A stretch of DNA of 64,000 nt from a virus, in IMG/VR virus record IMGVR_UViG_3300046786_000748, positions 32,001 to 96,000 of that record; one strand, written 5' to 3'. The notes beneath the pieces are model-generated. The model was not told the DNA's origin and searched no databases. It saw nothing but the letters and a program-made list of their open reading frames with translations. Every line of letters begins with the position of its first letter. Positions within the stretch are counted from its first letter, which is position 1. A program made the translations under genes and the position numbers. Shown here piece by piece: positions 13,307 through 57,962 of the stretch.

Positions 13307-14185
13307 TTAAACTCTTGGTGTAAAATTAACAGGGTCATAAATAGCTGTCATTTCTTTAATAAACGGTTTCATTACTTCATCTTTTAATGCTTCCTGAAAA
13401 CAGTCTTCCCAAGATTTTACTTTTGGATTTCCAATCTCGTTTAATTCAGGATTGTTATGAATTTCCCTAGCTTTTGAAGCCCATTTGGAAGCAGCCTGTG
13501 TTCTCCACTTGTCTTTATCACCACTCTTTTTGTTTCTAAAAGTCAATTCAAAAGATAATTGTTTACCATTCTCAAATATAGCAGAAATTGATTGACTTCC
13601 TTCATGTACAAACCACCCATCTCCCTGTCTAAAACTTTCATTAATTGGTGCTGTTTCCTGAGTTTCCCTAGACATCCCCTTCCAATCAGAATGGTCTACA
13701 CCCCAGTTTTTAACATAAGGTTTCATTCTTTCACTACTTAATGCTTCGACAAAACATTCTTTCCAAGATTTTCTTTTGAAATAAGGATCATTTGGATCTG
13801 TTGGACGAATTCTTGAGTTGTGTAGTCTATGAATCTTTTGAGTTTCAATCATCCACCTTCTAACCGCCTTTTTACCCCACTCTTGTATCTTTCTAAACTC
13901 CGGTCTGTAAGGACCAATAGAATTACCAACCAATTCTCCAAGTTCTTGTGGATATTGAACTTCAAACCAAATTCTTGCTTGTTCTCGGTGATATCCCTCA
14001 GGACCTATGTAAACACAAGCACCTGTAGTTCCACTTTCCCAATCATTTGCTCCTTGATAAGCAGACCAACCATTCCCCTGTTCAAACATATCAAAATTTT
14101 CAGGAACACGAAATGGTTTGGCGTCTTTAGACGACACAAACCCAGGAACATAGAGTTCTTCTAAAAGGTGTTTTAAGTGAATCAT
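13307..14185 (-). CDS. Hypothetical two-repeat protein with head-targeting-like leader and capsid-identical C-terminal peptide
   Basis: 292 aa; starts MIHLKHLLEE; two copies of F-x-QG-x-GW...KSW-x-x-CF-x-EAL...MKP; ends YDPVNFTPRV. Confidence 0.75.
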   Translation of the reverse strand: MIHLKHLLEELYVPGFVSSKDAKPFRVPENFDMFEQGNGWSAYQGANDWESGTTGACVYIGPEGYHREQARIWFEVQYPQELGELVGNSIGPYRPEFRKIQEWGKKAVRRWMIETQKIHRLHNSRIRPTDPNDPYFKRKSWKECFVEALSSERMKPYVKNWGVDHSDWKGMSRETQETAPINESFRQGDGWFVHEGSQSISAIFENGKQLSFELTFRNKKSGDKDKWRTQAASKWASKAREIHNNPELNEIGNPKVKSWEDCFQEALKDEVMKPFIKEMTAIYDPVNFTPRV

Positions 14186-14186
14186 A

Positions 14187-14990
14187 TCAAATTATAAATA
14201 TCGGATTCTTATTACAAAACTCGTCTAATGCTTTGAATAATTCAACATTATTAGCCCACTCCTTAAGTGGTTTCTGTTCATCTTCCGGATTTTCATCCGA
14301 AACAACAGGTTCTTCTTCTGGCTCTTGTGGAGTTTGCATCGGATCATCAACAGGTTTTGTAGCTACTGTAGGTTCTAGTTCTGGCTCAGGAGTTTGAGTT
14401 GGATCAATCGGTTTTTCCAATTCTGGCTCAGGTTCTTCTGGTGGTAATTTTTCCTTGGGAGGAGTTGTTGGAACAGCCACAGGAGTTTGATTGGGTGGTT
14501 GTGTTGGGTCGGGAGAAGGAACAGGTTCGCCTTCAATATTAGTTCTTAAATACTCTTTTAAAGCAATAAGATGTTTACAAAGACCAGGACCACGGTTAAT
14601 AGAAGATGGATAGTTCAATCCTTTGTTCAAACTACCAGGACCGTTTTCACCTGCGTCTTGTTGTTTATTAGCATAACTAAATCTAAACCTATAATCAGGA
14701 CAACTGCAATCAACTGAACAAGGAACTTTCATTGCGTTATCGCCAGGATTCATTTCTTCTTTGTAAAAATAAATAAACCCTTGGTGTCTCAATCCCGTAG
14801 TATTTTCGTCTCTAGGAGTTTTATAAGAAAATTTCCAAGCCTCTCTGTCGTTTATAGATTTAGCTACAAGAGATTTTGCTGGGATTCTATTCGCTCTGTC
14901 TTTTCTAGCAGAATCAGAAGCACGCATGAGATCTTCATAAGACATTTTCTCAACAAGCATTTCTGAAATTAATGAACGAAGTTTAATCAT
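14187..14990 (-). CDS. SWIM zinc-finger protein with Pro/Glu-rich tail
   Basis: VDCSCPDY...GLCKHLIAL (CxC-xn-CxH); leader MIKLRSLISE. Confidence 0.7.
   Translation of the reverse strand: MIKLRSLISEMLVEKMSYEDLMRASDSARKDRANRIPAKSLVAKSINDREAWKFSYKTPRDENTTGLRHQGFIYFYKEEMNPGDNAMKVPCSVDCSCPDYRFRFSYANKQQDAGENGPGSLNKGLNYPSSINRGPGLCKHLIALKEYLRTNIEGEPVPSPDPTQPPNQTPVAVPTTPPKEKLPPEEPEPELEKPIDPTQTPEPELEPTVATKPVDDPMQTPQEPEEEPVVSDENPEDEQKPLKEWANNVELFKALDEFCNKNPIFII
14193..14200 (-). promoter_or_regulatory. TATTTATA putative late promoter motif
   Basis: 7 nt before ATG 14185, embedded in the 3' end of the upstream gene. Confidence 0.5.
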
Positions 14991-14991
14991 A

Positions 14992-15549
14992 TTAGTTGAA
15001 TCCCAATCTCATAACCATCGTTGTTAAAATTGGACATTGAAATTTGTTTTTATCATAATACATCCATTCAATAGTACCTTCACTATCAAACTTAGAACCA
15101 TCTCCTGTTTTTTTAGAAGGTTCTTTATCACCAACATCAACTGCGTATAAATAATAAATAGTATCTGTTGATTTAGTACCTCTACAAGTTCCCAATGATT
15201 TCAAATCTTTCTCTTTTACTTCATATCCACTTTCTTCTTTAATTTCTTTTACAGCAGTTTCTTCAGGAGACATGCCTTTTTCACAACCACCTGTCAAAGC
15301 AGATAAGTTCTTTTCTTTCCCCCAAGCAGGAGTAACTTCTTTTCTAACCCCATATTCCCACGCATCCCTACCTTTTCTTCTATACAATAAAACCCCTACT
15401 ATTTTACCCTGACAACGTTCTTCGTGGAGATAAAAATAACCATCTTCGTCTTTAACAAGTTTAATTTTTTTAATGGAAATCCACTCGTTTTCATAAACGG
15501 TTTCTTCTTTTTTATTTCCTTCACAGAGAAGATGTTTTAACTTAATCAT
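14992..15549 (-). CDS. NUDIX hydrolase
   Basis: Variant Nudix box GGCEKGMSPEETAVKEIKEESGY; leader MIKLKHLLCE. Confidence 0.85.
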   Translation of the reverse strand: MIKLKHLLCEGNKKEETVYENEWISIKKIKLVKDEDGYFYLHEERCQGKIVGVLLYRRKGRDAWEYGVRKEVTPAWGKEKNLSALTGGCEKGMSPEETAVKEIKEESGYEVKEKDLKSLGTCRGTKSTDTIYYLYAVDVGDKEPSKKTGDGSKFDSEGTIEWMYYDKNKFQCPILTTMVMRLGFN

Positions 15550-15557
15550 AAATCAAA

Positions 15558-15565
15558 TATAAATA
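15558..15565 (-). promoter_or_regulatory. TATTTATA putative late promoter motif
   Basis: 8 nt before ATG 15549. Confidence 0.55.
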
Positions 15566-16333
15566 TTACGATATTAACTCGTTCTTAAGTTTTCTTTTAT
15601 GATACTTTACAGCACTTATACTGATTTTATATTTTGTTGAAAGTTGAATAATTGTATGTTGGTCGGATAAAATATCTTTAATTAAGTCCGATTTAATTTT
15701 CTTTAAAATTTGTTTATTGAGTTTTATTTTCTGTTTGTTTTCTTCTGACATTGGACCCAAAACCATTCCGGACCTTCGGTTTGGATTACTGTAGTTCATT
15801 GTTCTATTTTTTAACATAATTCGCCGATCATTAAACTTTTGTTGACCCACTTCTTTTCCATATTTGTTTGTAAACCACTCCATAGAGAACCTACCCTTCG
15901 CTTTTTCTTTTTGTAGTTGTTTGGATTCCTCTGTGTGGTTTCTGCCATACATAGGATTGTTTTCACCTAATGAAATAGTCCTCATTTTTTCAATAAACAC
16001 ATCTCTATTTGGATTATATGTTATATTATCACCACCGTTGGCTGTCGGACATATGTTATATCCGATATCTCTCATGTAAGGTTTAAACAAATCCAGATAA
16101 TGTTGTTCTCTATCCAAGAGAATAATTTTTTCCGAAAGAGTTTCTTCAACAATTTCAAACAGGAATTTATCGTTGCCATAAAAATCCCAGGCGTGTTGAA
16201 GTTTTGGGTTTATATGATATCCACCATTTAGATATTGTTTGTGTTCTTCCCACCTATAATCTATATCTTTAGCAGAACCGATATAAAATTTTCCGTTAAC
16301 AGTATTAGTTATTTTGTAAATTCCACTTTTCAT
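15566..16333 (-). CDS. Free-standing GIY-YIG homing endonuclease (NUMOD3 and C-terminal HTH)
   Basis: SGIYKITNTVNGKFYIGS...REQHYLD...GYNI; GENNPMYGRNHTEESK; lies directly downstream of the capsid gene. Confidence 0.9.
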   Translation of the reverse strand: MKSGIYKITNTVNGKFYIGSAKDIDYRWEEHKQYLNGGYHINPKLQHAWDFYGNDKFLFEIVEETLSEKIILLDREQHYLDLFKPYMRDIGYNICPTANGGDNITYNPNRDVFIEKMRTISLGENNPMYGRNHTEESKQLQKEKAKGRFSMEWFTNKYGKEVGQQKFNDRRIMLKNRTMNYSNPNRRSGMVLGPMSEENKQKIKLNKQILKKIKSDLIKDILSDQHTIIQLSTKYKISISAVKYHKRKLKNELIS

Positions 16334-16338
16334 ATGTC

Positions 16339-16381
16339 TATAAATATCATGAATTTTACGGAATAATCAAACATTTGTCAA
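16339..16381 (-). promoter_or_regulatory. Tandem sigma70-type promoter (TTGACA-17-TAAAAT) and TATTTATA motif
   Basis: TTGACA 16381-16376, TAAAAT 16358-16353, TATTTATA 16346-16339. Confidence 0.6.
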
Positions 16382-16432
16382 CATTTTATTTTGAACATAT
16401 TATATGAAATTTATTGAGTAAATAAATGCAAG

Positions 16433-16460
16433 AAAAAGAGCCTCATTTCTGAGGCTCTTT
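16433..16460 (-). terminator. Intrinsic terminator after major capsid gene
   Basis: 11-bp stem AAAGAGCCTCA/TGAGGCTCTTT, GAAA loop on minus strand, U-tract. Confidence 0.85.
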
Positions 16461-16487
16461 GCGTTTATAAGTTATTGGTTACCAAGA

Positions 16488-18215
16488 TTATACTTGATTT
16501 AAATCGCCTACCAAAATGCGCCCGTAAAATTCTGGGCGGACTATCTTCTTCGCATATCTTGTCATTACACCACGTCTTGGCGTGAAGTTCACTGGATCGT
16601 AGACTAGAGGAGTCTGAACGAGTGGGATATATGGAGCATAGACAGCACCAGTTTCGAGGAAGTTATTTCCACGGAAACCAACAAGAATTACGTTGTCGGT
16701 CATATATGGGTTCTTGTAAACCTGGAATCTTGAAGCAAAGCTTCCGACTCTGGTTACGCCCATTGCGAACTTGGCTTGGTCACCATCGGTATTTACTGCC
16801 CATCCTGGGATGGATTCAAGGATGGTTGCGACATCTGGCGAGCAAACGAGGAAGTTAGCACCACCACGGAGGGTCAACTGGTGAATCTTGTTACTAACCT
16901 TCTGAATCTTGATACCCAACGTGCGGTACCATGTATCCTTGGTGTAATATCCACCTGTTCCTGCAACGGATTGATCAACGACTGCGTATGTTCCATCACC
17001 GTTGGAGAGGATTTCACGATTGAGCTTAGCAGACCATCTTTCGGTGGTGATTGCTGGAGCATTCGTGATTAACATGTCGAGGATTTCAAGGTCGATTTCC
17101 ATTGAAACGTACTCAGACAACAGAGCAGTAAGTTCTGCTTCTGCGTCAATGCTGTGATAAGCATTCAAGTCTTGAGCAAGTTCTGGAGTCCAGACTGCTT
17201 TCAACTTACGAGTCTTGGCGACGATAGGTTCGCTCTTAAGTTCCAAATTAACTTCTGGGATACCGATATCGTTATTTAATCCAAATGTAGCATCTGGAGA
17301 ACCACGATCTTCGAAGTCACCACGGTTGGCATCTTTAGGCTGTACTGAGTAAATAACAGTCCAAGTTCCACCAGCGGCATTTGCACCACCACCACCCATA
17401 CCTGGAGCACCACCCAATGTTGCGGAAGCAGTTACGAGGAAGACAACTTCGGTTCCGAATTGTTTGGTTAATGCTGGGTAATACGATGCGGATGTATTAG
17501 TTGGAGTAAACAACGATGCGGATTGTGCTGGTCCATAAAGAACAAAGCTACGAACTCCATTTGCGTCGAATACGTTACCAGCTGCTGTGGTCTGTGAATA
17601 GAGGTTAGTTGTAGCAACCTTCCAAATCTTACCAGCGGCCAGTGAAGATGACAAACTTACATCCCAGTTGATATCTTCCATCGAAGCAGAAGAAACTAAG
17701 ACTGTAGCGGTTGTGTTTTTATCATTTACAGTATATCCGAAACGGCCGGAACCATAAAGACCACCGGTTGCTGAATCAGTCGAACCGAGTTTCGTACCCG
17801 TTCCACCGTAAAGAGATTGCGAGGTTGTTCCACCACCCTGACCGTCCTTGTAGAACTGACCTTGGTTTGTTCCATACTTGAAATCAAGATAGAATACGAG
17901 ACCAGAAGGAAGATTCATTGGCTGAACCGAGACGAATTCCTTAGCAGCGATTTCTGCGAATACACGACGAACGAGTGGAAGAGCGACGCCTGCCCATTGT
18001 TCGGAGTTTGAAGATACACCAGTCTGACTGGCTTCTTCGATAAGCTGCTTGGCTTGGTTTTCAAGCAATACAGCCATGTTGGATTTTTCCATGTCATTCT
18101 TCAAACCTTCAAGCAAGCCTGTCTTATCCCACTTGGAGACGAGACCACGGGTTTCTTGCATCAAACGAGCCTGAGGATTCATGGTGTTTGTCAATAGTGA
18201 CTTTACATCATTCAT
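16488..18215 (-). CDS. gp23: Major capsid protein (T4 gp23-like)
   Basis: LPLVRRVF...VQPMNLPSGLVF, AKTRKLKAVWTPELAQDLNAYH, YAPYIPL...FTPRRGVMTRY; AAGGA RBS. Confidence 0.97.
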   Translation of the reverse strand: MNDVKSLLTNTMNPQARLMQETRGLVSKWDKTGLLEGLKNDMEKSNMAVLLENQAKQLIEEASQTGVSSNSEQWAGVALPLVRRVFAEIAAKEFVSVQPMNLPSGLVFYLDFKYGTNQGQFYKDGQGGGTTSQSLYGGTGTKLGSTDSATGGLYGSGRFGYTVNDKNTTATVLVSSASMEDINWDVSLSSSLAAGKIWKVATTNLYSQTTAAGNVFDANGVRSFVLYGPAQSASLFTPTNTSASYYPALTKQFGTEVVFLVTASATLGGAPGMGGGGANAAGGTWTVIYSVQPKDANRGDFEDRGSPDATFGLNNDIGIPEVNLELKSEPIVAKTRKLKAVWTPELAQDLNAYHSIDAEAELTALLSEYVSMEIDLEILDMLITNAPAITTERWSAKLNREILSNGDGTYAVVDQSVAGTGGYYTKDTWYRTLGIKIQKVSNKIHQLTLRGGANFLVCSPDVATILESIPGWAVNTDGDQAKFAMGVTRVGSFASRFQVYKNPYMTDNVILVGFRGNNFLETGAVYAPYIPLVQTPLVYDPVNFTPRRGVMTRYAKKIVRPEFYGRILVGDLNQV

Positions 18216-18255
18216 AATATATGTTTCCTTAATTTATCTAACTTTTTTTGCTCAA

Positions 18256-19545
18256 TTACTTTTTCGCAGGAATACCAGCGAGCTTCTGGAATCTCTGTGC
18301 CATCTGATTAACACCTTCGGTGATAACCTCTTTAGATGGTTTCGTTGACGCTACAGGCTTGGATGCTGCACCCTCGGTGATCGTAGTAACTTGATTGATT
18401 GGGTTCTGCGAGAGAGCCTTTCTCTTCAAGTTTCCACCAAGATTTAATGATTCACACCAATTTGCGTATGTCATCTTAACTTCACGAACGCATTTTGTAA
18501 GATCAAATGCTTCCACGACCTTTGTTTTTTGGTCACGGTTCATACCAAACTCCTTAAACAGCTTGTTCGTGTAAAGCAGTTTTGCGTTTAGTAGATTGAT
18601 CTCATTAAGTTGTTTCTGTAAATACTCTACAGTCTTGTAGGCTTCATTACGTTCAGAAGTTACTTCATTAAGTTGAGTTTGAAGAGCAACGGTTTCATCA
18701 CACTTCTCTTCCTTATCGTCTTCTTCCTTCTCTTCTTCCTTCTCTTCTTTAGCCTCTTCATTGAGACTTGCGAGTAATTCATTCAAATCAATTTCTTCCT
18801 CTTCCATAGGAGCTGGTTCCTCAGTTGGAGGAGCACCGGCGTCTGGTCCACCCATTGGAGGAACTTCGCCGCCTGGAGGAGGAGGCGTTCCACCAACAGG
18901 AGCTTCAACCTTAGAAATTACAACAGTGTCACCACTCTTGATTTCTTGAGATTCTTCGCCTGGGGTTTCTTCGCCTGGAACTTCATCGTCACCTGGAACT
19001 GGAGGTCCGCCGGCGTCACCACCTGGAACTGGAGGCATGTCATCCATAGGAGCAGCACCAGCTTCGGCTTCAAGCTCACGAATAATTTCATCCAAATCTT
19101 CGTTTGTTACAGTTTCTTCAACTGATTCCTCTTCAACAGCACCTTCTGTTGCGTTTTCTTTAACTCCTTTGGGAGTTCCGTCAAATGCGTTACCTTTGTT
19201 ATCCTTAGACCAACCTTTGGTTCCATCTCCACCGTCTTTAGCAGAAGGAATTGTGTTTGGGGTGATGTTTTTATCGGTAGGTTTTGGACCTGCGTTGTCT
19301 TTAGACCAACTCTTAGTGCCATCGTTCTTAGATGGTTTTGCATCCTTTGGTTCTACAGTTTCAGCAACAGGGGCATCGACTGATGGTTGGGATTCGGTTG
19401 CAGAATCTTCTCTCAATTTATCTGCAAATACAGCCGAAAAACGACTGTTAAAAGCTTCCTCAAGGGATGCTTTAGCATTTGCTAATGCTGTGGCTCTAAC
19501 GGCCTTTGCATCGGCAATAGCTTCTTTTAATAGATTACTATTCAT
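18256..19545 (-). CDS. Prohead core/scaffold protein (gp22-like)
   Basis: Immediately upstream of the capsid gene; acidic, Pro-rich and coiled-coil; many [LIV]-x-E sites; LNEINLLNAKLLY...FQKLAGI. Confidence 0.8.
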   Translation of the reverse strand: MNSNLLKEAIADAKAVRATALANAKASLEEAFNSRFSAVFADKLREDSATESQPSVDAPVAETVEPKDAKPSKNDGTKSWSKDNAGPKPTDKNITPNTIPSAKDGGDGTKGWSKDNKGNAFDGTPKGVKENATEGAVEEESVEETVTNEDLDEIIRELEAEAGAAPMDDMPPVPGGDAGGPPVPGDDEVPGEETPGEESQEIKSGDTVVISKVEAPVGGTPPPPGGEVPPMGGPDAGAPPTEEPAPMEEEEIDLNELLASLNEEAKEEKEEEKEEDDKEEKCDETVALQTQLNEVTSERNEAYKTVEYLQKQLNEINLLNAKLLYTNKLFKEFGMNRDQKTKVVEAFDLTKCVREVKMTYANWCESLNLGGNLKRKALSQNPINQVTTITEGAASKPVASTKPSKEVITEGVNQMAQRFQKLAGIPAKK

Positions 19546-19644
19546 AATTACAAGTTTCCTACTTTTGTTTCTGGGGTTATTAGAAGAACCACAATTTAAG
19601 TTAATTTATTTGTGGCGGCGAAGAAGTCGCAGCATTTTTACAAA

Positions 19645-19696
19645 TATAAATATAGAAGAAAAAATCAAAATTATAAAAAACTTCAAGATATTTATT
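19645..19696. promoter_or_regulatory. Back-to-back TATTTAT motifs driving divergent late units
   Basis: TATTTATA on minus strand at 19652-19645 (toward scaffold/capsid); ATATTTATT on plus strand at 19688-19696 (toward ATG 19722). Confidence 0.55.
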
Positions 19697-19721
19697 GATA
19701 ACCGTATCTAAATGTAAACAT

Positions 19722-20429
19722 ATGCCCGCCAAAAGTGAAAAACAACGTAGATTTTTCTACTTGGTAAAAGCCCTTCAAAAAGGAAAGGTTTCACCAAAAA
19801 GAGTTGGTAGTAAAGTTTCCAAAGCAGCATCATCTATGTCATCTAAAGATGTTGATGATTTTACTCATGGAAAAAACCTACCTAAGAAAAAACTAGAAGA
19901 AATTATAGGAGTGTTAAAAAACTTATCGGCTAACGATGAAAATCCAGCCTTTCAAGATCCTGTAACCGATTTAAGAACAGGAGTTGCGAATCCAGATTTA
20001 ACTTTGGAAAACCAATTTGATGATCCAAATCAAACCGAACAAAACCCTATAGCTAAAACTTTTAATCAACAAGGTAACTTTGAAGAATATATTGGAAAGT
20101 TTTCTGGACTAGAACTAAAACCGAAAGAAATAGAATCCATTACTAATTATACTAATGCTAAGCCTACTAAGATGGATAAATTCTTAGTTAGATATGAATC
20201 AACAGACGAGTTTAATAACAACACTATAACCGTAGTTAAAAAATTAAGAGAAGGCACAGATTTAGTATTTACTATTTTTCAATCATCTACACAACAAGGT
20301 GGAACGGAACCTCAAGGTGAAGAACCAACAGGACAAAACGAAATTATAGTAACTAAATCTCGTTCGTTTGTTAATGAAATTGAAGGTGGTAAAATTTTAG
20401 CAGACTTATTACAGAAATTGGACGTATGA
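19722..20429 (+). CDS. DUF3008-like N-terminal domain protein
   Basis: MPAKSEKQRRFF...AASSMSSKDVDDF...LPKKK; start refined from TTG 19695 to ATG 19722. Confidence 0.55.
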   Translation: MPAKSEKQRRFFYLVKALQKGKVSPKRVGSKVSKAASSMSSKDVDDFTHGKNLPKKKLEEIIGVLKNLSANDENPAFQDPVTDLRTGVANPDLTLENQFDDPNQTEQNPIAKTFNQQGNFEEYIGKFSGLELKPKEIESITNYTNAKPTKMDKFLVRYESTDEFNNNTITVVKKLREGTDLVFTIFQSSTQQGGTEPQGEEPTGQNEIIVTKSRSFVNEIEGGKILADLLQKLDV

Positions 20430-20794
20430 TAAAATTAAAACAACTACTAAAAGAAGTTGACGAGGATAAAAACTCAAACATTGCTTCTGTTGAAGATGAA
20501 CGGGAATGGAAAATGCCCGATGTCGATCATATGCTTTCTATGAAATTTGAAAGAGAAGGAGATTCGGTTTTTATTCTAGCAAATCCAGCGATGAAGGTTT
20601 ATAAGATAAAAAACGGACCTTTTGTTTTGGAAGAACCTATAGAAAATCACGAACACAATTTTCAAAAAGGAATTGTTTCACCTATAAAACCACACGGATT
20701 AGCAGCATTTAACCAAAGTAAACAAATCAAAAAGTATGAGTTTCCAACATTTATCAAACTCATAAGATTTTTCGATAACTATAAACAAGATTAA
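20426..20794 (+). CDS. Hypothetical protein with head-targeting-like leader
   Basis: 122 aa; MIKLKQLLKE; ATGA overlap with upstream gene. Confidence 0.7.
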   Translation: MIKLKQLLKEVDEDKNSNIASVEDEREWKMPDVDHMLSMKFEREGDSVFILANPAMKVYKIKNGPFVLEEPIENHEHNFQKGIVSPIKPHGLAAFNQSKQIKKYEFPTFIKLIRFFDNYKQD

Positions 20795-20820
20795 GGATTT
20801 TGAACAATATTTATAAACGT

Positions 20821-21807
20821 ATGAAACTCAAAAAGATTGTAGAAAACATGGACAAAATGCCTTCGACATTGAAGGGATTTAATGAGTCGCCAAAACTTTC
20901 TCCTGAACAAAAGAGAAAATTAATGGAAATGGTAGGTCAATATAACACCCTCGGACAGAAATTAAGAATGGAAGGTGCTTTGATTGAAACTGCCACAGCT
21001 TTAGCTGAAATAGCCGAACTAGCAGAAACCTATGCTTGTAATGAAGCATCCGATTGGTTCGCAACTGAAGTGGTTAAAACCGATTTTAAACGAGCTAAGG
21101 GAATTACAGAAACATTTCAAAAACTCGCCCGTGAATGTCATGGTAAAGTTCAACAGTTGAATGCTCTTTATGAAGACATGGGACACATTCTTGGGCGTTA
21201 TTATGAAATCGCCGACCCAATGGCCGAAGTCTGTCCAAATCCAACAAATGTTAAGAGTCAACGTGGTTTGCCAAATGCACAACCTCAGACAATCATGCAG
21301 GAAGTTAAACCTAATGATAAAAATATCAAATCTCAAAGACAACTCCCATCCGGCGGTTCTGCTCCAACGCAAGTAAAAGAAGTTGCTGTTGACGATAAAC
21401 ACGCAAACATCAAAGGACAACGTGAACTTCCTCACACCAACGGCCCAGCAACGCCTCAAGTAAAAGAAGTTGCTGTTGATGACAAACACGCTAATGTTAA
21501 AGGTCAACGAGATTTGCCTTCTGGCGGACCTACTCCTTATCATCCACCAAAAGATCCACAAGATACCGGTTCAGTTAAAGAAGTAACTGTAAATGATTCC
21601 AATCTTCAATCTCAACGTGAACTTCCACAAGGCGGTCCAGAAGGATATACACCACCCAAGTTAGAAAATCCAAGCCCAGAAGTAAATCCTGCTGGTGCTG
21701 GTGAAATGAATGTTAAAGGTGAAAGAGATGTTCCACAAGGAGGACCATCTAAAGATGTCGCTTATGAGTCTTTTAGATTCAAAGACATTCTAAAATCAAT
21801 TAAGTAA
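20821..21807 (+). CDS. Helical domain plus six-unit peptide array protein
   Basis: Start refined to ATG 20821 (MKLKKIVE), 5 nt after TATTTATA 20808-20815; six N-[VIL]-[KQ]-[SG]-[QE]-R-x-[LV]-P repeats. Confidence 0.75.
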   Translation: MKLKKIVENMDKMPSTLKGFNESPKLSPEQKRKLMEMVGQYNTLGQKLRMEGALIETATALAEIAELAETYACNEASDWFATEVVKTDFKRAKGITETFQKLARECHGKVQQLNALYEDMGHILGRYYEIADPMAEVCPNPTNVKSQRGLPNAQPQTIMQEVKPNDKNIKSQRQLPSGGSAPTQVKEVAVDDKHANIKGQRELPHTNGPATPQVKEVAVDDKHANVKGQRDLPSGGPTPYHPPKDPQDTGSVKEVTVNDSNLQSQRELPQGGPEGYTPPKLENPSPEVNPAGAGEMNVKGERDVPQGGPSKDVAYESFRFKDILKSIK

Positions 21808-21831
21808 TCTGTTGAGTCATATTCATACTAG

Positions 21832-21863
21832 AAGACCGTCAGAAATGACGGTCTTTTTATTTT
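21832..21863 (+). terminator. Intrinsic terminator between convergent units
   Basis: Stem AAGACCGTCA/TGACGGTCTT, GAAA loop, T-tract. Confidence 0.85.
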
Positions 21864-22258
21864 GGCCAAATATAAGGCAAATCAGGAGGTTCATTCCACC
21901 CAAACTGACCATACCAAATTGGATTTTTCCTAATCAAATTTGATCGATGTGATGCGTGGAACTTGTCATCACCAAACCAATTTGGTAATCCTGTATCAGT
22001 AAATTTAGACATTTCCATTTTAATTCTTTCAATCACTGCTGGATAAGGTTTGCCTCTTTCTTCTAAAATTTGACATCCAGCGAGGAGATATAGACCAAGT
22101 TGATATTCATAACCACGCCACATTTTTGAAGCAGGGTGATTCTTCCAACCGCCTCGTATCAATGTATATCCTTCACGCCATATCTGATTCCCCAAACGAG
22201 TTCTATCAAGAACTCGCATGGATTCTAAGAAATTTGGTAATGGAAGAAATGTTTGCAT
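21857..22258 (-). CDS. Pyrimidine-dimer DNA glycosylase family (MSMEG_6728-like)
   Basis: MQTFLP...LDRTRLGNQ...WKNHPASKMWRGY...HASHRSNLIRKNP...LPYIWP; start refined to 22258. Confidence 0.8.
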   Translation of the reverse strand: MQTFLPLPNFLESMRVLDRTRLGNQIWREGYTLIRGGWKNHPASKMWRGYEYQLGLYLLAGCQILEERGKPYPAVIERIKMEMSKFTDTGLPNWFGDDKFHASHRSNLIRKNPIWYGQFGWNEPPDLPYIWPK

Positions 22259-22259
22259 A

Positions 22260-22475
22260 TCAAAACGGAACATCTCCAGTTGGTACAGACCCTAATGAAA
22301 TAGGAAAGTCTCCACGACCATACCACTTTTCTCTAACATTAACAGTGGTGTCATAAGCATCAAGACATCCAACTAAATAATCGGCTAGAATAAAATCTGG
22401 AGTATTCGATCCGTTTTCCATTGAATATTTGTTTATTAGACGTTCAAGTTCTTTTTTAAATTCTTCTTTATTCAT
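22260..22475 (-). CDS. Conserved small phage hypothetical protein
   Basis: LINKYSMENGSNTPDFILADYLVGCL motif; coupled to neighbouring genes. Confidence 0.7.
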   Translation of the reverse strand: MNKEEFKKELERLINKYSMENGSNTPDFILADYLVGCLDAYDTTVNVREKWYGRGDFPISLGSVPTGDVPF

Positions 22476-22999
22476 ACGTCAAATTCTTTTCCATCTAGAT
22501 AACCTTTCTTACCTAAGAAAGCATCTAAATATCTAATAGTAATACCGGCTTCGTTAAACATTTGTTTTGATCTGTGATAATGTTCTGCCCAAGGCCTACC
22601 TACAGTAGTAATTTGTGTTGAAATATCTTCCCACTGTTTGTGAAGAACAATTTCAACAATTCCGCAATTTACAACTCCTCTAGCACAATCCACACAAGGC
22701 ATTCCTTGTGTATAAAGCATTCCACATTCTGTAGGAATACCAAATTTTGCTGCCATGTTAATAACATTTCTTTCAGCATGTTCCATCCAGTGATACTTTT
22801 CAGGACGAACCATTCTTTCGGAGAGATCCTCAACTCCTCTACAAATGCCGTTAAATCCTTCAAGCGGAGCATATCCGTTTTTTACAAGAACCGCTCCAAC
22901 TTTGGTTCGTGGATCTTTTGATTTACGAGCAATTTCATAAACCTTGCCCATAAATAATTCATCCCAAGTAGGCGGTATATAATTTTCAAATTCTTTCAT
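22472..22999 (-). CDS. dCMP deaminase
   Basis: SKDPRTKVGAVLV, HAERN, PCVDC zinc-deaminase motifs. Confidence 0.92.
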   Translation of the reverse strand: MKEFENYIPPTWDELFMGKVYEIARKSKDPRTKVGAVLVKNGYAPLEGFNGICRGVEDLSERMVRPEKYHWMEHAERNVINMAAKFGIPTECGMLYTQGMPCVDCARGVVNCGIVEIVLHKQWEDISTQITTVGRPWAEHYHRSKQMFNEAGITIRYLDAFLGKKGYLDGKEFDV

Positions 23000-23696
23000 T
23001 AACAAAGATTACATCACAATCATCACATCCGTCAACATAATCTATCTGTTTTGCCTTTTCTACAAAACCAAATTGATTAAGATAATCACAAACGTCTTTA
23101 TAAGATGGTTGGTTTTTATATTTAGGTTTCCAACTACATTCTGCTTGAATGACAGATACATTTTTAATCATATCTTCAAACCCTTTAAAAACTTCTATTT
23201 CAAATCCTTGAACATCTATATAAACCAAATCTACTTTTTTTATGTTATTATTTAAACAATAAGTTTTCGCTTTAGCAATAGGAACGGCTTCTGCAAGAAG
23301 TTTTTTGTCAAATAACTCTAAATCAGAACATTCTTCTAAAAAAGAATTTAACCCAGGATTTCTAAACAAATTTAAAATCGCCGATCCATCTGAATTTCCC
23401 AATCCACATAAAACTGATGTTATATTAGGAATACCGGAAACATTATCAAGAATCAATTTGAATGGTACCAGTGATGCTTCAAATAAAAAAACATGAGATT
23501 TCGGAAGGTAGTTGCTCAACAAAATAGCTTCTACGCCATTTAAAGCGCCAATATTAAAAACAACATCCATTTTAATCGGATCAACAAATGTCATCAAAAA
23601 ATCTATCTGTTTTTTGATATTGTCAATTATAAGACCAAATTCACCGTTAAGATTATCATTATAATAAAGTAAATGATTAACTAAATGGTCTTTCAT
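22986..23696 (-). CDS. FkbM-family methyltransferase
   Basis: VFNIGALNG...FEAS...VDLVYIDVQGFEIEVFKG; start refined to 23696. Confidence 0.85.
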   Translation of the reverse strand: MKDHLVNHLLYYNDNLNGEFGLIIDNIKKQIDFLMTFVDPIKMDVVFNIGALNGVEAILLSNYLPKSHVFLFEASLVPFKLILDNVSGIPNITSVLCGLGNSDGSAILNLFRNPGLNSFLEECSDLELFDKKLLAEAVPIAKAKTYCLNNNIKKVDLVYIDVQGFEIEVFKGFEDMIKNVSVIQAECSWKPKYKNQPSYKDVCDYLNQFGFVEKAKQIDYVDGCDDCDVIFVNERI

Positions 23697-23697
23697 T

Positions 23698-24213
23698 TTA
23701 TTTTTTCCAAAATTTTCTGACAACCATTAAAATTTCTCCGAGTTTATTCTGTCCTTTTCCTTCATAAACTCCCCAACAAACATCTTTCCAATGATTCGTT
23801 TCTTCAAGATAAGCATTATCTGTCGATAAAAGTTTTTCTCTTAACCCCTTGTGAACAGCAAATTTTTGAGTAACCAGTTGAAGCATAACATCATATTTAA
23901 CATTATCCCACTCCTTTTTATCCAATAACACACTGCCACCAAGTCTTTTAACTTCTTTAGCATTACACGTTGTAAAAGGTAAACGATCATGCGAATCAAC
24001 CTTCGCAGCTTGATAAGCATGTTCCGTGGAGGGATACTTCAATCCTTCATACCAAATTCCCAATGGACATGGATAAAAGTTGCTCAAATAACGATAATCT
24101 CCAAAAAACCCTTTGATTTCTTTTTCGGAATGAACCGCGTATTCCGGAACTTTTACTTCCGAAACATATTGTTTCTTATCAAGAGCTTTTTTGAGCAATT
24201 CAATTTCTGTCAT
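23698..24213 (-). CDS. NADAR-family protein (YbiA/DUF1768)
   Basis: YLSNFYP...YPSTEHAYQAAK...KF..H..L..KLLST...EE...D..WG...GQNKLGEILM; start refined to 24213. Confidence 0.9.
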   Translation of the reverse strand: MTEIELLKKALDKKQYVSEVKVPEYAVHSEKEIKGFFGDYRYLSNFYPCPLGIWYEGLKYPSTEHAYQAAKVDSHDRLPFTTCNAKEVKRLGGSVLLDKKEWDNVKYDVMLQLVTQKFAVHKGLREKLLSTDNAYLEETNHWKDVCWGVYEGKGQNKLGEILMVVRKFWKK

Positions 24214-24442
24214 TTTTTGACCTTTCTTCTTTACATTCTTCATCTGCTTTTTTGATTGCATCAACCAATTCCTGCCCATCTCCCTTTTTGATTATTTGAA
24301 GCGGCGTTAATCCTTTATAATCTTTCAAAGGAGTATTCAACCATTCTCGGACAACCGCATCTAAAAAGACAGATTTAACCTTTTTTATCATAAGGTTAAT
24401 CTGCTCGGATTGAGAGAGTTCGTCTTTTTGTTTTTTATCCAT
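24200..24442 (-). CDS. Xre/MbcA/ParS antitoxin C-terminal (toxin-binding) domain protein, orphan
   Basis: VF...VREWLNTPLKDYKGLTPLQII..G.G.ELV matches the DUF2384-type W-L-x-x-P-x3-L-x-G-x-x-P-L pattern. Confidence 0.65.
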   Translation of the reverse strand: MDKKQKDELSQSEQINLMIKKVKSVFLDAVVREWLNTPLKDYKGLTPLQIIKKGDGQELVDAIKKADEECKEERSKNDRN

Positions 24443-24443
24443 A

Positions 24444-24665
24444 TCAATCGCTCATATCAGCGTGATGAACATATTTACACTCATCACAAATTGTTACTAC
24501 ATCCGTACATCTATTCATATACTGCGAATTATCAAATTCCCGAGTTTTGTGTTTTGCTTCCATACACTCTTTGACTTTTGGATGATTCCATAATTGCCAT
24601 CCCAAATCAGTGTAATCAACGGGTTTAACAAAACGACCTGCGTTTGGATTTCTTATTAAGACCAT
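24444..24665 (-). CDS. Small Cys/His-containing hypothetical protein
   Basis: 73 aa; C-x4-H...C-x6-CDEC; first gene after a sigma70-type promoter. Confidence 0.6.
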   Translation of the reverse strand: MVLIRNPNAGRFVKPVDYTDLGWQLWNHPKVKECMEAKHKTREFDNSQYMNRCTDVVTICDECKYVHHADMSD

Positions 24666-24671
24666 GATAAG

Positions 24672-24700
24672 ATAATAAACGAAAAAAGAGAGAATGTCAA
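24672..24700 (-). promoter_or_regulatory. Sigma70-type promoter TTGACA-17-TATTAT, probably giving a leaderless transcript
   Basis: -35 at 24700-24695, -10 at 24677-24672, 6 nt before ATG 24665. Confidence 0.65.
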
Positions 24701-24713
24701 TTCTCTCTTTTTT
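24682..24713 (-). terminator. Intrinsic terminator hairpin after nucleotidyltransferase
   Basis: AAAAAAGAGAGAAT/ATTCTCTCTTTTTT inverted repeat with 4-nt loop. Confidence 0.7.
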
Positions 24714-24715
24714 GT

Positions 24716-25834
24716 TTAACGAAGACGTTTGATGTCGTGATATAAACCGTTGATTTTTTTAAAGTCAACTGTTTTTGGAAGTTTGGTGACTTTGTATGCT
24801 TCGTCCAATTTAACTTGCATTTCTTCGGCATACTCCATCACCTTATCATAACTCCAAGCACCCTTCTTGATTGATAAGATTTCGTCTCGATCTGGCCTTT
24901 TAACGATTACTTTGCCTTCCGTTAAGATTTCATAACCCATTCTCATCAACCTAACAAGGTGTGAAGCGTGTTTCGTGTCATATCCTGATTTCTCTTCAAG
25001 AACAGCACGTTCTTTGTTACGATTCTTCTTCCAGTTAACCCAAGACTGATATTTCTCAACCGATCTTTTATAAGCGTATTCAGCTTGAATCAACTTAGCA
25101 ACCTGTTCTGACAAACCAAGGTCATGAACAAGTTTTTGTTGAGCAGATAACCAATAGGCTTCCGGCCAATTATCCCAAGAAACAGATGCTCCAGAAACTT
25201 CTATGATTAACTCCCAGATAGTTTCTTTCAAATCATTTCTCGTCATTTCATCCAAAGGAAACTTGCTAAGGTTCCATTCTTCAAGCTTCTGCTTGACATA
25301 CTTGTTAACCTCGTCAAATCCCCTCGGTGAAGTATCAGGAAGACCAAAATCGGCCCGAGAAGGCTCTTTTAATTCTCCTTCGACAATCCATTTTCGGTGT
25401 CTTTCGATTTTAGCTGCCTGAGCAAAGGCATATCCACTAAACGTGAACTTTGCTTTTGAACTCAAGAATAAATCTCTGTGTTCAAATAAAGAAGATATGC
25501 TCTTATGATACATCAACCTATCGCTTTCATGAGTCCACAATAACTCGATGATGTTTGGGTTAATGTTTGCTGCCAAGATAAAAAACTTTCTCAAAGAATA
25601 AACCGTAGACTCCAGTTTTGGGTTCTTGGGGTTCTTGAGATAAGCACATTGAACTTCAACATCAGGATGATTTTCCGCCTGTTCAAAGTGTTGAAACAAG
25701 TCGTTTTCCACTTCGTCCGGAGGAATACAAATCCCTTTAACGTCAACGTCAGAGGATTCCGTAGCAAGACCATACGCTCGACTTCCGTGGACCGTTAAAT
25801 ATACGAGATTGTCTTTTAACCAGTTAAGATTCAT
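24716..25834 (-). CDS. Pol-beta-superfamily nucleotidyltransferase (RlaP/YcgL-like)
   Basis: HGSRAYGLATESSDVDVKG, NPNIIELLW, GYDTKHASHLVRL; start refined to ATG 25834. Confidence 0.85.
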   Translation of the reverse strand: MNLNWLKDNLVYLTVHGSRAYGLATESSDVDVKGICIPPDEVENDLFQHFEQAENHPDVEVQCAYLKNPKNPKLESTVYSLRKFFILAANINPNIIELLWTHESDRLMYHKSISSLFEHRDLFLSSKAKFTFSGYAFAQAAKIERHRKWIVEGELKEPSRADFGLPDTSPRGFDEVNKYVKQKLEEWNLSKFPLDEMTRNDLKETIWELIIEVSGASVSWDNWPEAYWLSAQQKLVHDLGLSEQVAKLIQAEYAYKRSVEKYQSWVNWKKNRNKERAVLEEKSGYDTKHASHLVRLMRMGYEILTEGKVIVKRPDRDEILSIKKGAWSYDKVMEYAEEMQVKLDEAYKVTKLPKTVDFKKINGLYHDIKRLR

Positions 25835-25841
25835 AATAACT

Positions 25842-25870
25842 ACTTTACAGTATAAAAACAGAAGAGTCAA
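25842..25870 (-). promoter_or_regulatory. Sigma70-type promoter TTGACT-17-TAAAGT
   Basis: -35 at 25870-25865, -10 at 25847-25842, 7 nt before ATG 25834. Confidence 0.55.
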
Positions 25871-25872
25871 AC

Positions 25873-25902
25873 AAAAAGCCCCTTCCGGTTAAGAAAGGGG
25901 CT
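25873..25902 (-). terminator. Intrinsic terminator after prohead protease
   Basis: Minus strand AGCCCCTTTC-TTAACC-GGAAGGGGCT-TTTT. Confidence 0.8.
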
Positions 25903-25924
25903 CAACAACAACATGAATTACAAT

Positions 25925-26542
25925 TTAAACGATTTCACTGAAAATGTCTTGAATGATACTTTCTGCTGTAACCCATTTTCCGTTAATTGGGTTTTGTACA
26001 ACTTGTTTTACACCTTCTGTTAAAGCACCAGATGGAAACATAAATGCTCCTCTTGTTGAAGGATTGGAAACAAAATCAAAAGCAATCAATTCAAAATCGT
26101 CTTGAACCTGATCAACACCTTCGGAAATTTTCTTAATAGTTCCAAGACCACGACTGGAAATTCCAAGACGAATGTTGGAACGGAAAAGTTCTTTCAAGAT
26201 GTTACCGCTTGGAGTTCCAAGAACTTCAACGGTTCCCATAAGATCTTTACCTTCCCAATGCATTTCAATTATGTTATGGGAAACGTTTTTGAGGTTAACT
26301 ACTTGAGATTCTGGATGATCAAGTTCACCAAGAGCACGTCTTTCTTTTATAAAACCCTCTGTATATTTTTGGGCCTCACGCATTAGAGTTTCATATGGAT
26401 AACTACGTCCATTTTGGTTTGTGGCTTCTGCACGCTGGAGAATGCCCTTTACAACGAATGGACCTTTACCGGATAAGGCTTCGGTAAGAGTTTGTCTCAA
26501 AGGTTCAAACGTTATTACGTCAATTAAGAGTTTCTTTTCCAT
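25925..26542 (-). CDS. gp21: Prohead core protease (T4 gp21-like)
   Basis: NQNGRSYP, ALGELDHP, VSHNI, TPSGNI, GISSRGLG, DFVSNPS. Confidence 0.95.
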   Translation of the reverse strand: MEKKLLIDVITFEPLRQTLTEALSGKGPFVVKGILQRAEATNQNGRSYPYETLMREAQKYTEGFIKERRALGELDHPESQVVNLKNVSHNIIEMHWEGKDLMGTVEVLGTPSGNILKELFRSNIRLGISSRGLGTIKKISEGVDQVQDDFELIAFDFVSNPSTRGAFMFPSGALTEGVKQVVQNPINGKWVTAESIIQDIFSEIV

Positions 26543-26543
26543 A

Positions 26544-27014
26544 TTATCTTCCTAAAGCTGGTTGTTTACCTGCTCCAGTAGGTTGTTGACCTTGAGGGTT
26601 TACAGGCGGTTGTGAAGGTTGTTGAACCGTTGGTTCCGGTTGTTGTGGAGTTTCTGCTGCTCCTGGTTCTGGAGCAATACCACCACCAACAACTTTAATT
26701 TTGTAACCGGCTGTTAAAAAATGTTCTTTGTTATTTTCGTTTTTCAATACAACAACCCAATCATCATAAAAGTCGTTTATATTGACGCCGGTAACTCTAC
26801 TAATTGTATAATCTTTGACAGGTTGTTTGTATCCTCTTGAGGCATTGACAACCACAGATTTGTTTAAAATTTTAGAAGCAAGAGCTTTTTCAAACTTTGA
26901 CTTAGCTTGTTCAGTTGTAGAGTTTATCGTGGATTTAAACGCATCAAAATCTCTGGTCCAGTCATAAAACTGTCCCTGATCAACCTGTTCAAGAATGTGG
27001 GATAAAAGCATCAT
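26544..27014 (-). CDS. Hypothetical head-region protein
   Basis: 156 aa; leader MMLLSHILE; Pro/Gln-rich tail. Confidence 0.7.
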   Translation of the reverse strand: MMLLSHILEQVDQGQFYDWTRDFDAFKSTINSTTEQAKSKFEKALASKILNKSVVVNASRGYKQPVKDYTISRVTGVNINDFYDDWVVVLKNENNKEHFLTAGYKIKVVGGGIAPEPGAAETPQQPEPTVQQPSQPPVNPQGQQPTGAGKQPALGR

Positions 27015-27721
27015 TAGGTTACCTTTCCACCAACACTTTTGGCAGCAATAGATTTCATTTTTTTCCTATCAGGATCAGGATCTACCCAATTTTTACCGTA
27101 AAATCCTTGAGCAGCAGATGTTCCTGTCATCTCGTCTATATCACCCTTCCACTTCTTATCACGGTTTCTATCATACTTTGGTTTAGGACCTTCTTTTCCC
27201 TGACCGTGTATTCTCGAAACGGGATTTACATCACCCCAAGATTTTCTAACTTTTGGTGTAGAAGGAGCTTTTATTGTAATACTTCCTTCTTTGATATTAT
27301 GCATTTTTTTAAAAGTTTCGTAAGAATAAGTTACATCACCAGCAGTTGAATAAACAGCAACATCAATCTTTCCATTTGGATACCTGGCATTCACAAATTC
27401 ATATTTAGTCCCACCCATTATAAAAGGCTCTTCGCCTGTACGTCTACTATGGTATTCAACATATTGCGGATCTTCTTCGACTTCATCCAATCCTCCTAAT
27501 CCCATTTTATTAAGTTGATCGGTTCCAGCTTTTAAATCATCCATCTGTTTGTTATAATCAACTTTTGGTGGTTTTCCTGGTTTTGAACTTGGAGTAGGTG
27601 TTGTAAACCCATCGGGTTTATCACCCCAATTGCCATGTTTATCTAACTGTTGGACACCATTTTCAATTAGGACTTCTTTAATACATTCCCTAATGAGTTT
27701 TTTAAATTCTTTCTTATCCAT
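27014..27721 (-). CDS. Hypothetical head-region protein, segmented
   Basis: 235 aa; leader MDKKEFKKLIRECIKEVLIE; segments bounded by LIE, LDE, IKE, IDE. Confidence 0.7.
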   Translation of the reverse strand: MDKKEFKKLIRECIKEVLIENGVQQLDKHGNWGDKPDGFTTPTPSSKPGKPPKVDYNKQMDDLKAGTDQLNKMGLGGLDEVEEDPQYVEYHSRRTGEEPFIMGGTKYEFVNARYPNGKIDVAVYSTAGDVTYSYETFKKMHNIKEGSITIKAPSTPKVRKSWGDVNPVSRIHGQGKEGPKPKYDRNRDKKWKGDIDEMTGTSAAQGFYGKNWVDPDPDRKKMKSIAAKSVGGKVT

Positions 27722-28613: not shown

Positions 28614-28678
28614 ATACTTACTCTTCAACTTAATTTATAAATATTTATAGACTTTCCCATAATATAGAAATATTTACC

Positions 28679-31600: not shown

Positions 31601-31741
31601 TTTTATCTTGAGTTTCTTCCCACCAACGTTTCTTACTATTACATCAGTTGAAAACAATCTCTTTAAACGAGCATATAGTGATTGTTGTTTTACATCAATC
31701 ACGTCGTCTACAGATATCCTTGTTAAATTGTTAGTGGCCAT
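28679..31741 (-). CDS. gp20: Portal protein (T4 gp20-like) with intein
   Basis: LLEDAMLIHRIMRAPEKRIFKIDIGNIPP, EDIFLPTRG..GTSIDTLPG; intein after DYD; TATTTATA at 31768-31761 upstream. Confidence 0.95.
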   Translation of the reverse strand: MATNNLTRISVDDVIDVKQQSLYARLKRLFSTDVIVRNVGGKKLKIKDSDEIQYATDRNSFRDRWNRVRSSNVNAYTRDFALSYQAARLDLFRDYDCVGPDTIIPLPDGTTPTIAELAEKYKDNPQERFLVFSYDHETDSIKLGKAYHPRKKEGGARKSWKVIFDNGQYVIGSAGHPFLMRNGEYKKLENLSVGESVMPFYQKDFYNNGYRSIYNFSKGWQSEHVIVAEQFERPLNDNEVVHHRNFDKTNNLPSNLQIMTDSDHRAFHMHLNNDVIWSPANKQKTIEKVQSSDGYKNRKFNKWNGKRAGKNNPFYGKSHSKKSNQLRSESLKTSLKKRNQSRFRNPNARNDISFDIISDYAFEYYKTYGKLDIFGLSKYVGCDYSTVRNRLIDGEYDWDTFKQEIVSTLNHKIVSIEYVGEIEVYDVTVEKYQNFATDSCFVHNTMDMDPIISSVLDIYADECLTENEMGEMLTIDSKNNNIKDILHNLFYDILNVEFNLWSWIRNMCKYGDFYLKLNISPEYGVYLVEPISAYNVERIENSDPLNKNYVKFQIRPVDTSQAEILESFQVAHFRLLADSNFLPYGRSMIEPGRRVWKQLSLLEDAMLIHRIMRAPEKRIFKIDIGNIPPNEVDNFMEQIISKMKKVPYIDERTGDYNLRFNLMNMVEDIFLPTRGADSGTSIDTLPGMEFTGIDDLEYVKNKMMAAFKVPKPFIGFDENTSGKATLAAEDVRFARTISRIQKMVISELNKIAQVHLYAQGYRDASIVDFTIGLTNPSTVFEKEKMEIWAAKMENAKTMSEMSDSSGPFFSRKFVFKKIFRMSDDDIQKNEQDVVEDCKQLWRLKQITEDGNDPAKPFKKINPQSDGGDGDGDGGGLSGPGGGGGSGPDLGDEEGGPEGEPGGGPEGGPGEEGPVKESVVVSEKQGESAHDYVRPSQAGEKKASDYPFGEDPLGDLERTRDSSKTDRTLTPKVSKESPLALEMKSVFNSLDNFMSSGKDVKKELMTESKDKSILDEANILE
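30410..31453 (-). mobile_element. 348-aa intein with HNH endonuclease and NUMOD3-like motif in portal
   Basis: Begins CVGPDT (Cys97); block B SAGHPF; VVHHRNFDKTNNLPSNL (HNH); GKNNPFYGKSHS; ends VYDVTVEKYQNF...VHN followed by Thr. Confidence 0.93.
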
Positions 31742-44543: not shown

Positions 44544-44570
44544 CTACAGTATAAATATACAGAGAGTACA

Positions 44571-57939: not shown

Positions 57940-57962
57940 GGTTTATAAATATGTGTGTATTC

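Follow-up and report, generated by a model that had tools for sequence, protein, structure and literature searches.

Why should otherwise unrelated proteins of one virus begin with nearly the same ten residues? The question is raised by a 64,000-nucleotide stretch of viral DNA (the window), bases 32001-96000 of the single 104,993-bp contig of IMG/VR record IMGVR_UViG_3300046786_000748. A preliminary description of this stretch had listed near-identical N-terminal leaders on unrelated proteins, most of them encoded around the head genes, and had proposed that such leaders route diverse cargo into the prohead, where a protease removes them. The contig belongs to a distant relative of phage T4, with a capsid protein that is 54% identical to that of Flavobacterium phage immuto, 52% to that of Microcystis phage Mel-JY01 and 39% to that of Rhodothermus phage RM378. 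CheckV places the completeness of the contig at approximately 30%, and our survey covers the genes on that part of the phage genome. We find that the leader is a real and portable N-terminal element, and consider it probable that it serves the clade as a T4-type tag for both capsid targeting and protease release. That the tagged proteins are also delivered into the host is a more doubtful proposition.

Six proteins of the contig bear a strict ten-residue N-terminal leader, M-I-K-L-K-x-L-L-x-E, which we call class 1. Across all six frames of the contig, the regular expression M[IMK]?[KHLI][LF]..[LIV][LIV].E matches at six places and every one of them is a gene start (window positions 14185, 14990, 15549 and 20426, and genome positions 26826 and 100590). 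A position-specific scoring matrix (PSSM) trained on relatives alone, and independent of this genome, scores these six leaders at 20-34 bits, with the next-best N-terminus of the contig at 0.3 bits. With the Met column removed, six of 84 N-termini reach at least 12 bits, as against one of 32,915 internal windows. Chance as the origin of the shared leader is ruled out by the regular expression, the PSSM and shuffle-type controls, and the near-identity reported for otherwise unrelated proteins is thus borne out; the eight N-termini quoted in the preliminary description were all found at their positions and are all genuine open reading frame (ORF) starts. Three shorter and weaker variants also end in [LI]-x-E, namely MKLKKIVE (20821), MMLLSHILE (27014) and MMLKQILTE (genome 28904). 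Scanning the genome and its relatives with a leader model, as had been suggested, gave a list of tagged proteins that includes three further members outside the window (genome 26826, 28904 and 100590). One leader-like stretch was discarded: ..LKDIIKSEY of the large terminase is part of a conserved domain, has no PSSM score and is not a leader.

A shared start need not be a shared peptide. It could instead act at the level of RNA or DNA, as an enhancer of translation initiation or as a cassette for recombination at the 5′ ends of genes. Such an element would suit the A/T-richness of the leader codons, the lack of an upstream Shine-Dalgarno-like sequence and the motif TATTTATA, which stands only 4-13 nucleotides (nt) from many start codons. 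However, leader copies differ freely in their Leu, Ile and Lys codons while the residues persist, which shows that selection acts on the peptide and not on the DNA. The tag is moreover retained in cargo families that have diverged to approximately 30% identity, and the highly expressed capsid and portal genes lack it. We therefore regard a nucleic acid-level origin as very improbable.

The upstream motif had been described as lying directly before several leader genes, and we find it 4-12 nt before four genes with class-1 leaders and one gene of a second leader class (class 2, below), as well as before many structural genes. The window holds 20 sense-strand copies of TATTTATA against 7.1 expected, and no shuffle reached 20. 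Copies at leader genes include 14193..14200 on the minus strand (7 nt upstream of the leader gene starting at 14185), 15558-15565 (8 nt upstream of the NUDIX gene), 20808-20815 (5 nt upstream of the gene starting at 20821) and 57944-57951 (4 nt upstream of the class-2 gene starting at 57939), and other copies, read as (A)TATTTATA, include 16339-16346, 28636-28643 and 44550-44557. Many ATGs of structural genes have the motif 4-13 nt upstream and lack a Shine-Dalgarno-like sequence, which points to a late-type promoter whose transcripts are almost leaderless. We rejected identity with the T4 late promoter, given that the T4 motif TATAAATA differs at two positions and that the copies here lie only 4-13 nt from many ATGs, and treat it as a clade-specific late-type motif.

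The same leader recurs well beyond this contig. In 80 related viral contigs, collected via the protease at 59-83% identity, we found 63 further leader ORFs (among ORFs of at least 50 residues), all of which begin no more than 33 residues from an upstream stop and all but one of which lie on the protease strand. When the first 12 residues are removed, 69 tagged ORFs fall into 26 unrelated clusters, with similarity ending at the Glu. An alignment of 27 tagged ORFs has M1 and E10 invariant, K3 nearly so and Leu or Ile at positions 7 and 8. The tagged genes of the relatives crowd a variable region between the protease gene and the scaffold and capsid genes, and leaders are present on proteins at the positions of T4 gp67 and gp68 and after the protease gene. 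A further observation concerns 27 tagged ORFs of relatives (for example L031:8035-8760, L059:6774-7499 and L072:6040-7365), which carry W-x-R-K-F-G-E-P-L-P-T-L a few residues past the leader Glu in proteins that otherwise differ; this may be a second tag module or a shared small domain.

Scanning viral contigs with the back-translated leader alone gave at least 120 tagged stretches, and 85 of the 92 matches listed lie at the start of an ORF of at least 50 residues. Six of the ten largest contigs among the matches listed encode a protease of the S77 family, including three of the four rated complete. Among named phages, four strict leaders are encoded by Mel-JY01 (60276, 60923, 62056 and 62733) and a single one by immuto (24977), which also has looser ones just upstream of its head module. 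The strict back-translated pattern has no match in RM378 and LR756508, where looser patterns were not tried.

If the leader is a release tag, an enzyme should exist that removes it, and we presume this to be the protease encoded in the head module, which runs on the minus strand and comprises a portal gene, three small genes, the prohead protease gene, a scaffold-like gene and the capsid gene. The preliminary description had placed a gp21 homologue at 25925..26542 (minus strand), and its assignment to the T4 gp21 family (Peptidase S77) is secure (Pfam PF03420, 5.4e-26; PHROG 207, head maturation protease, 1e-50; BLASTP against T4 gp21, 2e-22 at 32% identity). Its ELDHP (His76) and ISSRG (Ser129) align with ELNHP (His85) and VSSRG (Ser140) of T4 gp21, and we take His85 and Ser140 to be the catalytic residues of the T4 enzyme.

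The major capsid protein, of the gp23 family (16488..18215, minus strand; PHROG 138, 1e-72; match to the solved T4 gp23 at 1e-28), offers a view of what this protease is likely to recognize. Solved mature chains of T4 gp23 have 456 residues as against 521 in the precursor, which puts the T4 cut after ..FLTE. The mature T4 N-terminus aligns near residue 49 of the capsid protein studied here, beside VLLE52 and QLIE60, and residue 27 of mature T4 gp23 aligns to residue 75. Across an alignment of 22 relatives the capsid propeptide keeps TGLLE before Gly, LLE before Asn and Q-L-[LIV]-x-E before Ala. The L-[LIV]-x-E of this predicted maturation site is the four-residue ending of the leader, and hence the main substrate of the protease and the leader share a predicted recognition motif.

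The leader also resembles the T4 capsid-targeting sequence (CTS) position by position. The T4 CTS is MKTYQEFIAE, with a single cut after the Glu (PMC8442874), and mutational work gives residues 4 and 7 the main part in targeting and residues 8 and 10 that in processing (PMC9026906). The class-1 consensus M-I-K-L-K-[D/E]-L-L-K-E has the length of the T4 CTS, hydrophobic residues at 4, 7 and 8, and Glu at 10.

Which proteins carry the tag? On the minus strand, a gene at 13307..14185 encodes a 292-residue protein with the leader MIHLKHLLEE (14156-14185; PSSM 22 bits), for which no Pfam, PHROG or NCBIfam family was found. It has an internal duplication (blastp 1e-4), and its C-terminal YDPVNFTPR (window 13307-13354) is identical in nine residues to residues 539-547 of the capsid protein. 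Seven of the nine codons differ, which argues that the peptide itself is under selection; this copy may serve to attach the cargo to the shell, or may imitate a strand of the capsid. A 267-residue protein (14187..14990, minus strand), recognized by regular expression and PSSM, has the leader MIKLRSLISE, a CxC...CxH signature like that of SWIM domains and a tail rich in Pro and Glu, and its orthologue in a relative (L011) is also tagged (MIRLKDLLLE). It had been described as a SWIM protein, of which the CxC...CxH signature is confirmed while the domain match stays below threshold (E 0.03 here and 0.005 in the orthologue). The NUDIX assignment of the next cargo is firmer: this 185-residue hydrolase (14992..15549, minus strand) with the leader MIKLKHLLCE matches Pfam NUDIX at 1.9e-8 and is nearest to ADP-ribose pyrophosphatases. 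On the plus strand, a 122-residue protein (20426..20794) with the leader MIKLKQLLKE has the top PSSM score of the genome, 33.6 bits, and no Pfam or PHROG match. A 328-residue protein (20821..21807, plus strand) with the short leader MKLKKIVE has a peptide-repeat array as its C-terminal part and an N-terminal domain homologous to a tagged protein that follows the protease gene in relatives, directly in some of them. The weak member MMLLSHILE begins a 156-residue protein (26544..27014, minus strand) whose gene comes immediately before that of the protease, where T4 has gp68. At this place the closest relative (L004) encodes a protein starting MLTLSQILE, and T4 gp68 itself begins MLLIPE... directly before gp21.

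Outside the window, a four-gene operon (genome 26826-30331; L001:6826-10331) encodes a tagged 425-residue protein, a 97-residue protein, a 2H-phosphoesterase/LigT-like protein and a tagged CCA-adding enzyme. The last is a CCA-adding tRNA nucleotidyltransferase with an HD domain (genome 28904) and the leader MMLKQILTE, and its orthologues begin MMLKQILTE or MVNFKTLLTE. An invariant HEGRH motif in the 425-residue protein hints at a metallopeptidase, and searches of this protein with Pfam, PHROG, NCBIfam, Foldseek and VIA-align yielded only generic helical hairpins. The 2H-phosphoesterase/LigT-like protein has a weak, below-cut-off match to the anti-CBASS protein Acb1, and the operon as a whole has an RNA-repair or nucleotide-signal-degrading flavour. 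A tagged protein of 598 residues carries in its C-terminal third tandem OB folds that resemble SSB or RPA; in the ESM Atlas it matched unnamed viral clusters only. Several further tagged proteins are small and without a known family, and one relative (L005) encodes a tagged, stand-alone ADP-ribosyltransferase of 238 residues (ART-PolyVal, 6.5e-19).

Comparison of these cargoes with their homologues indicates that the tag is an add-on. Nearly all of 114 homologues of the 598-residue protein begin M[IV]KL..L[IV], whereas those in the T4-family phages Aeh1 and ValKK3 and in Vibrio phage D533 start approximately 30 residues later, at the conserved core, without a tag. The CCA-adding enzyme of ValKK3 likewise starts directly at its catalytic domain, untagged, and the alignment of the NUDIX protein with solved ADP-ribose pyrophosphatases is shifted by +9 residues, approximately the length of the leader. 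AlphaFold models of the 598- and 425-residue cargoes (mean predicted local distance difference test (pLDDT) scores of 84.5 and 84.6) place residues 1-17 and 1-11, respectively, at pLDDT below 50 and outside the fold. The tag regions are nearly without regular structure, apart from one four-residue helical turn in the 425-residue model, and the confident folds begin at approximately residue 23 (598-residue model) and residue 12 (425-residue model). All of the sequence-level predictions of the capsid-targeting reading that could be tested held, namely the protease, the CTS-like positions, the capsid motif, portability, untagged homologues, a tag outside the fold and, in a relative, a tagged ADP-ribosyltransferase that parallels T4 Alt. 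As a side observation, the untagged 598-residue homologue lies near the prohead-protease inhibitor gene Inh in ValKK3 (L115) and Aeh1 (L114), and in ValKK3 it also adjoins a tRNA nucleotidyltransferase gene, which recalls the cargo set of the phage studied here.

The second leader class noted in the preliminary description also proved real and portable. It has 12 residues, M-x-K-x-E-F-K-x-x-I-R-E, terminates in hydrophobic-hydrophobic-x-Glu as well, and occurs on three proteins of the contig (27721, 57939 and genome 24536). A 235-residue protein encoded between portal and protease (27014..27721, minus strand) carries MDKKEFKKLIRE...VLIE, and its orthologue in L004 begins MDKTEFRALIRE; a 187-residue protein (57376..57939, minus strand) has the class-2-like leader MKASEFKAVIRQLVLEE. 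Class 2 recurs in relatives: L074 has it on five different proteins, which begin MKKSELRQxIREE, immuto on two, which begin MKKSQLR, and L004 on one. A 71-residue protein (22260-22475) that starts MNKEEFKK was dropped from the class, as PHROG families cover its N-terminus and it is probably not a member.

Protease-cleaved leaders would not by themselves imply that anything is delivered. The tag could be a removable propeptide that times or restrains activity in the manner of a zymogen, or the mark of assembly helpers that are degraded and expelled. T4 gp22, gp67, gp68 and gp21 also start with short peptides ending in [LI]-x-E, and the first three, with N-termini similar to those described here, are degraded rather than delivered (PMC5694885). 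In line with such a fate, proteins at the gp67 and gp68 positions are tagged, and the 187-residue class-2 protein has eight hydrophobic-hydrophobic-x-Glu sites, or 4.3 per 100 residues, ten times the genome mean of 0.43. This density fits a core protein cut into small peptides, yet the gene sits among tail and baseplate genes. However, folded enzymes with few or no internal sites, such as the NUDIX protein, the CCA-adding enzyme and the ADP-ribosyltransferase of the relative, are unlikely scaffolds, and T4 proteins cut once behind the CTS stay in the head (PMC8442874). We judge a propeptide or disposal mark of this kind to be unlikely.

Several observations weigh against the capsid-targeting and release reading. 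The co-occurrence of tag and protease in the relatives exists by construction, because these were sampled via the protease, and in the tag-only scan four of the ten largest contigs have no detectable S77 gene. A contig of 207,029 bases (G007; L169) has one genuine leader ORF, and no T4-type protease or capsid gene was detected in it; its completeness is rated at 100%, but it is linear and lacks terminal repeats. Another (G005; L149), rated 68% complete, has three tandem MIKLK..LL.E genes, and again no T4-type protease or capsid gene was detected. In immuto and Mel-JY01 the strict leader genes sit among genes of nucleotide metabolism and replication, outside the head cluster. The ip genes of T4 lie outside its head cluster as well. 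Some members of the original leader list are weak, and the CCA-adding enzyme, the NUDIX protein and the OB-fold protein would serve equally as ordinary cytoplasmic enzymes. A literature search found no virion proteome for immuto, Mel-JY01 or any other relative.

The complete-rated G007, with its true leader ORF and no detectable T4-type head genes, and the position of the strict leader genes in immuto and Mel-JY01 would both suit a tag that is recognized by some other partner, such as an enzyme that modifies it, a chaperone or a compartment within the cell, and has nothing to do with the capsid. A radical-SAM enzyme was considered as such a partner and rejected, as none is linked to the tag: no radical-SAM/SPASM gene was found in this contig (approximately 30% complete), in Mel-JY01 (complete, with four leaders) or in the large relatives G002 and G003, and the radical-SAM genes of G001 and immuto are distant from those with leaders. 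We saw no other gene that accompanies the tag, whose invariant Glu and preceding hydrophobic residues fit the protease motif of the capsid protein. A recognition peptide unrelated to the capsid thus seems to us rather improbable.

The capsid-targeting and release reading can be spelled out by analogy with T4. The tagged proteins would be made late, together with the head proteins, and the amphipathic ten-residue N-terminus, hydrophobic at positions 4, 7 and 8, would dock the cargo on the scaffold core during prohead assembly. The gp21-type serine protease would then cut after the invariant Glu10, recognizing L-[LIV]-x-E as in the capsid propeptide, and the freed mature proteins would remain in the head with the DNA. 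Entry of the cargo into the next host along with the DNA is the least certain step. Docking, cleavage, retention and ejection are all argued here from T4.

If the phage is indeed T4-like in this respect, a ten-residue motif would suffice to list, from sequence, the proteins that many uncultured T4-like phages of fresh and marine waters package in the head and probably inject. Injected proteins meet the host defences first, and such a list would hence be a focused source of anti-defence candidates. It would also mean that the T4 targeting rule (hydrophobic residues at 4, 7 and 8, and Glu at 10) reaches a distant branch of the family, and would provide a second natural tag with which phage heads could be loaded with foreign proteins. 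More tentatively, the tag could be a shipping label shared by the T4-like and jumbo phages of a large, uncultured aquatic clade, with class-1 and class-2 proteins preloaded and injected as a counter-defence kit that acts before phage gene expression. The manifest of that kit would include a CCA-adding enzyme, an ADP-ribose-pyrophosphatase-like NUDIX protein, an ADP-ribosyltransferase and an OB-fold protein, and so cover RNA repair, ADP-ribose-directed activities and DNA binding. The principle is textbook T4 biology, and what we describe is an extension of known biology and not a new principle. Reviewers of the field anticipated such tags (PMC9026906), and in the literature we found no account of this leader consensus or its cargo list.

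The remaining genes of the neighbourhood complete the picture of the head module. It is marked by the portal gene of the gp20 family (28679..31741, minus strand; Pfam Portal_T4, 5.5e-69), which is split by an intein (Intein_splicing, 4e-14; HNH_3, an HNH endonuclease, 4e-7; and a NUMOD3 motif); the portals of the relatives L004, L011 and L013 have approximately 620-690 residues and are uninterrupted. Directly upstream of the capsid gene, in the gp22 position, lies the gene for an acidic scaffold-like protein (18256..19545, minus strand), which is assigned by position and composition, as family searches gave no match. Its N-terminus is MNSNLLKE before Ala, and ..LLKEAIADAKAVR is kept in relatives. 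No gp24 paralogue was seen in the partial contig by a rough gene list, with no search aimed at gp24. The gene directly after the capsid gene (15566-16333) has a GIY-YIG-like N-terminus (..GIYKITN..YIGS..), which recalls segD after T4 gene 23. The gene at 19722-20429 begins MPAKSEKQRRFF, and the first 70 residues of its product match PHROG families with no assigned function; in relatives it adjoins leader genes and begins MPAQSKQQQKFM or MPSKSKSQQRFM.

How far, then, does the likeness to known systems go? The nearest is the T4 CTS, with which the leader shares an approximately ten-residue, Glu-ending peptide on unrelated proteins, a gp21-family protease and a gp20-gp21-gp22-gp23 head module. 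The consensus differs, being MIKLKxLLxE here and MKTYQEFIAE in T4, and the class-2 leader M-x-K-x-E-F..I-x-E is a closer match to the T4 CTS than class 1. The cargo differs too: it includes large enzymes (the NUDIX protein, the CCA-adding enzyme and the 598-residue OB-fold protein), whereas T4 cargo consists of small basic proteins. The phages described here are distant from T4, uncultured and known from sequence alone, and their nearest isolates infect Flavobacterium and Microcystis.

A second T4 counterpart is gp24, which in the translated public T4 record starts MAKINELLRE and shares six of ten residues with the leader consensus, including K3, L7, L8 and E10. The cut in T4 gp24 falls after Glu10. 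The length and the [LI]-x-E ending are the same, but gp24 is a shell protein whereas the leader described here is borne by putative cargo. T4 Alt is a packaged and injected ADP-ribosyltransferase, and the tagged ADP-ribosyltransferase of L005 recalls it, although the latter belongs to another ART family, is a small stand-alone protein of 238 residues and is encoded in a relative and not in the window. The gp24 propeptide has been given as 10-20 residues (PMC5694885), and gp21 trims Alt at its N- and C-terminal ends (PMC5694885, PMC9026906). Finally, the ejection proteins of the giant phages phiKZ, 201phi2-1 and SPN3US have propeptides of 80-280 residues with the motif (S/A/G)-x-E (PMC5694885, PMC7411985). 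There, too, proteins inside the head lose N-terminal propeptides to a prohead protease of the superfamily found here, whereas the tag described here is only 10-12 residues long and ends in a T4-like [LI]-x-E.

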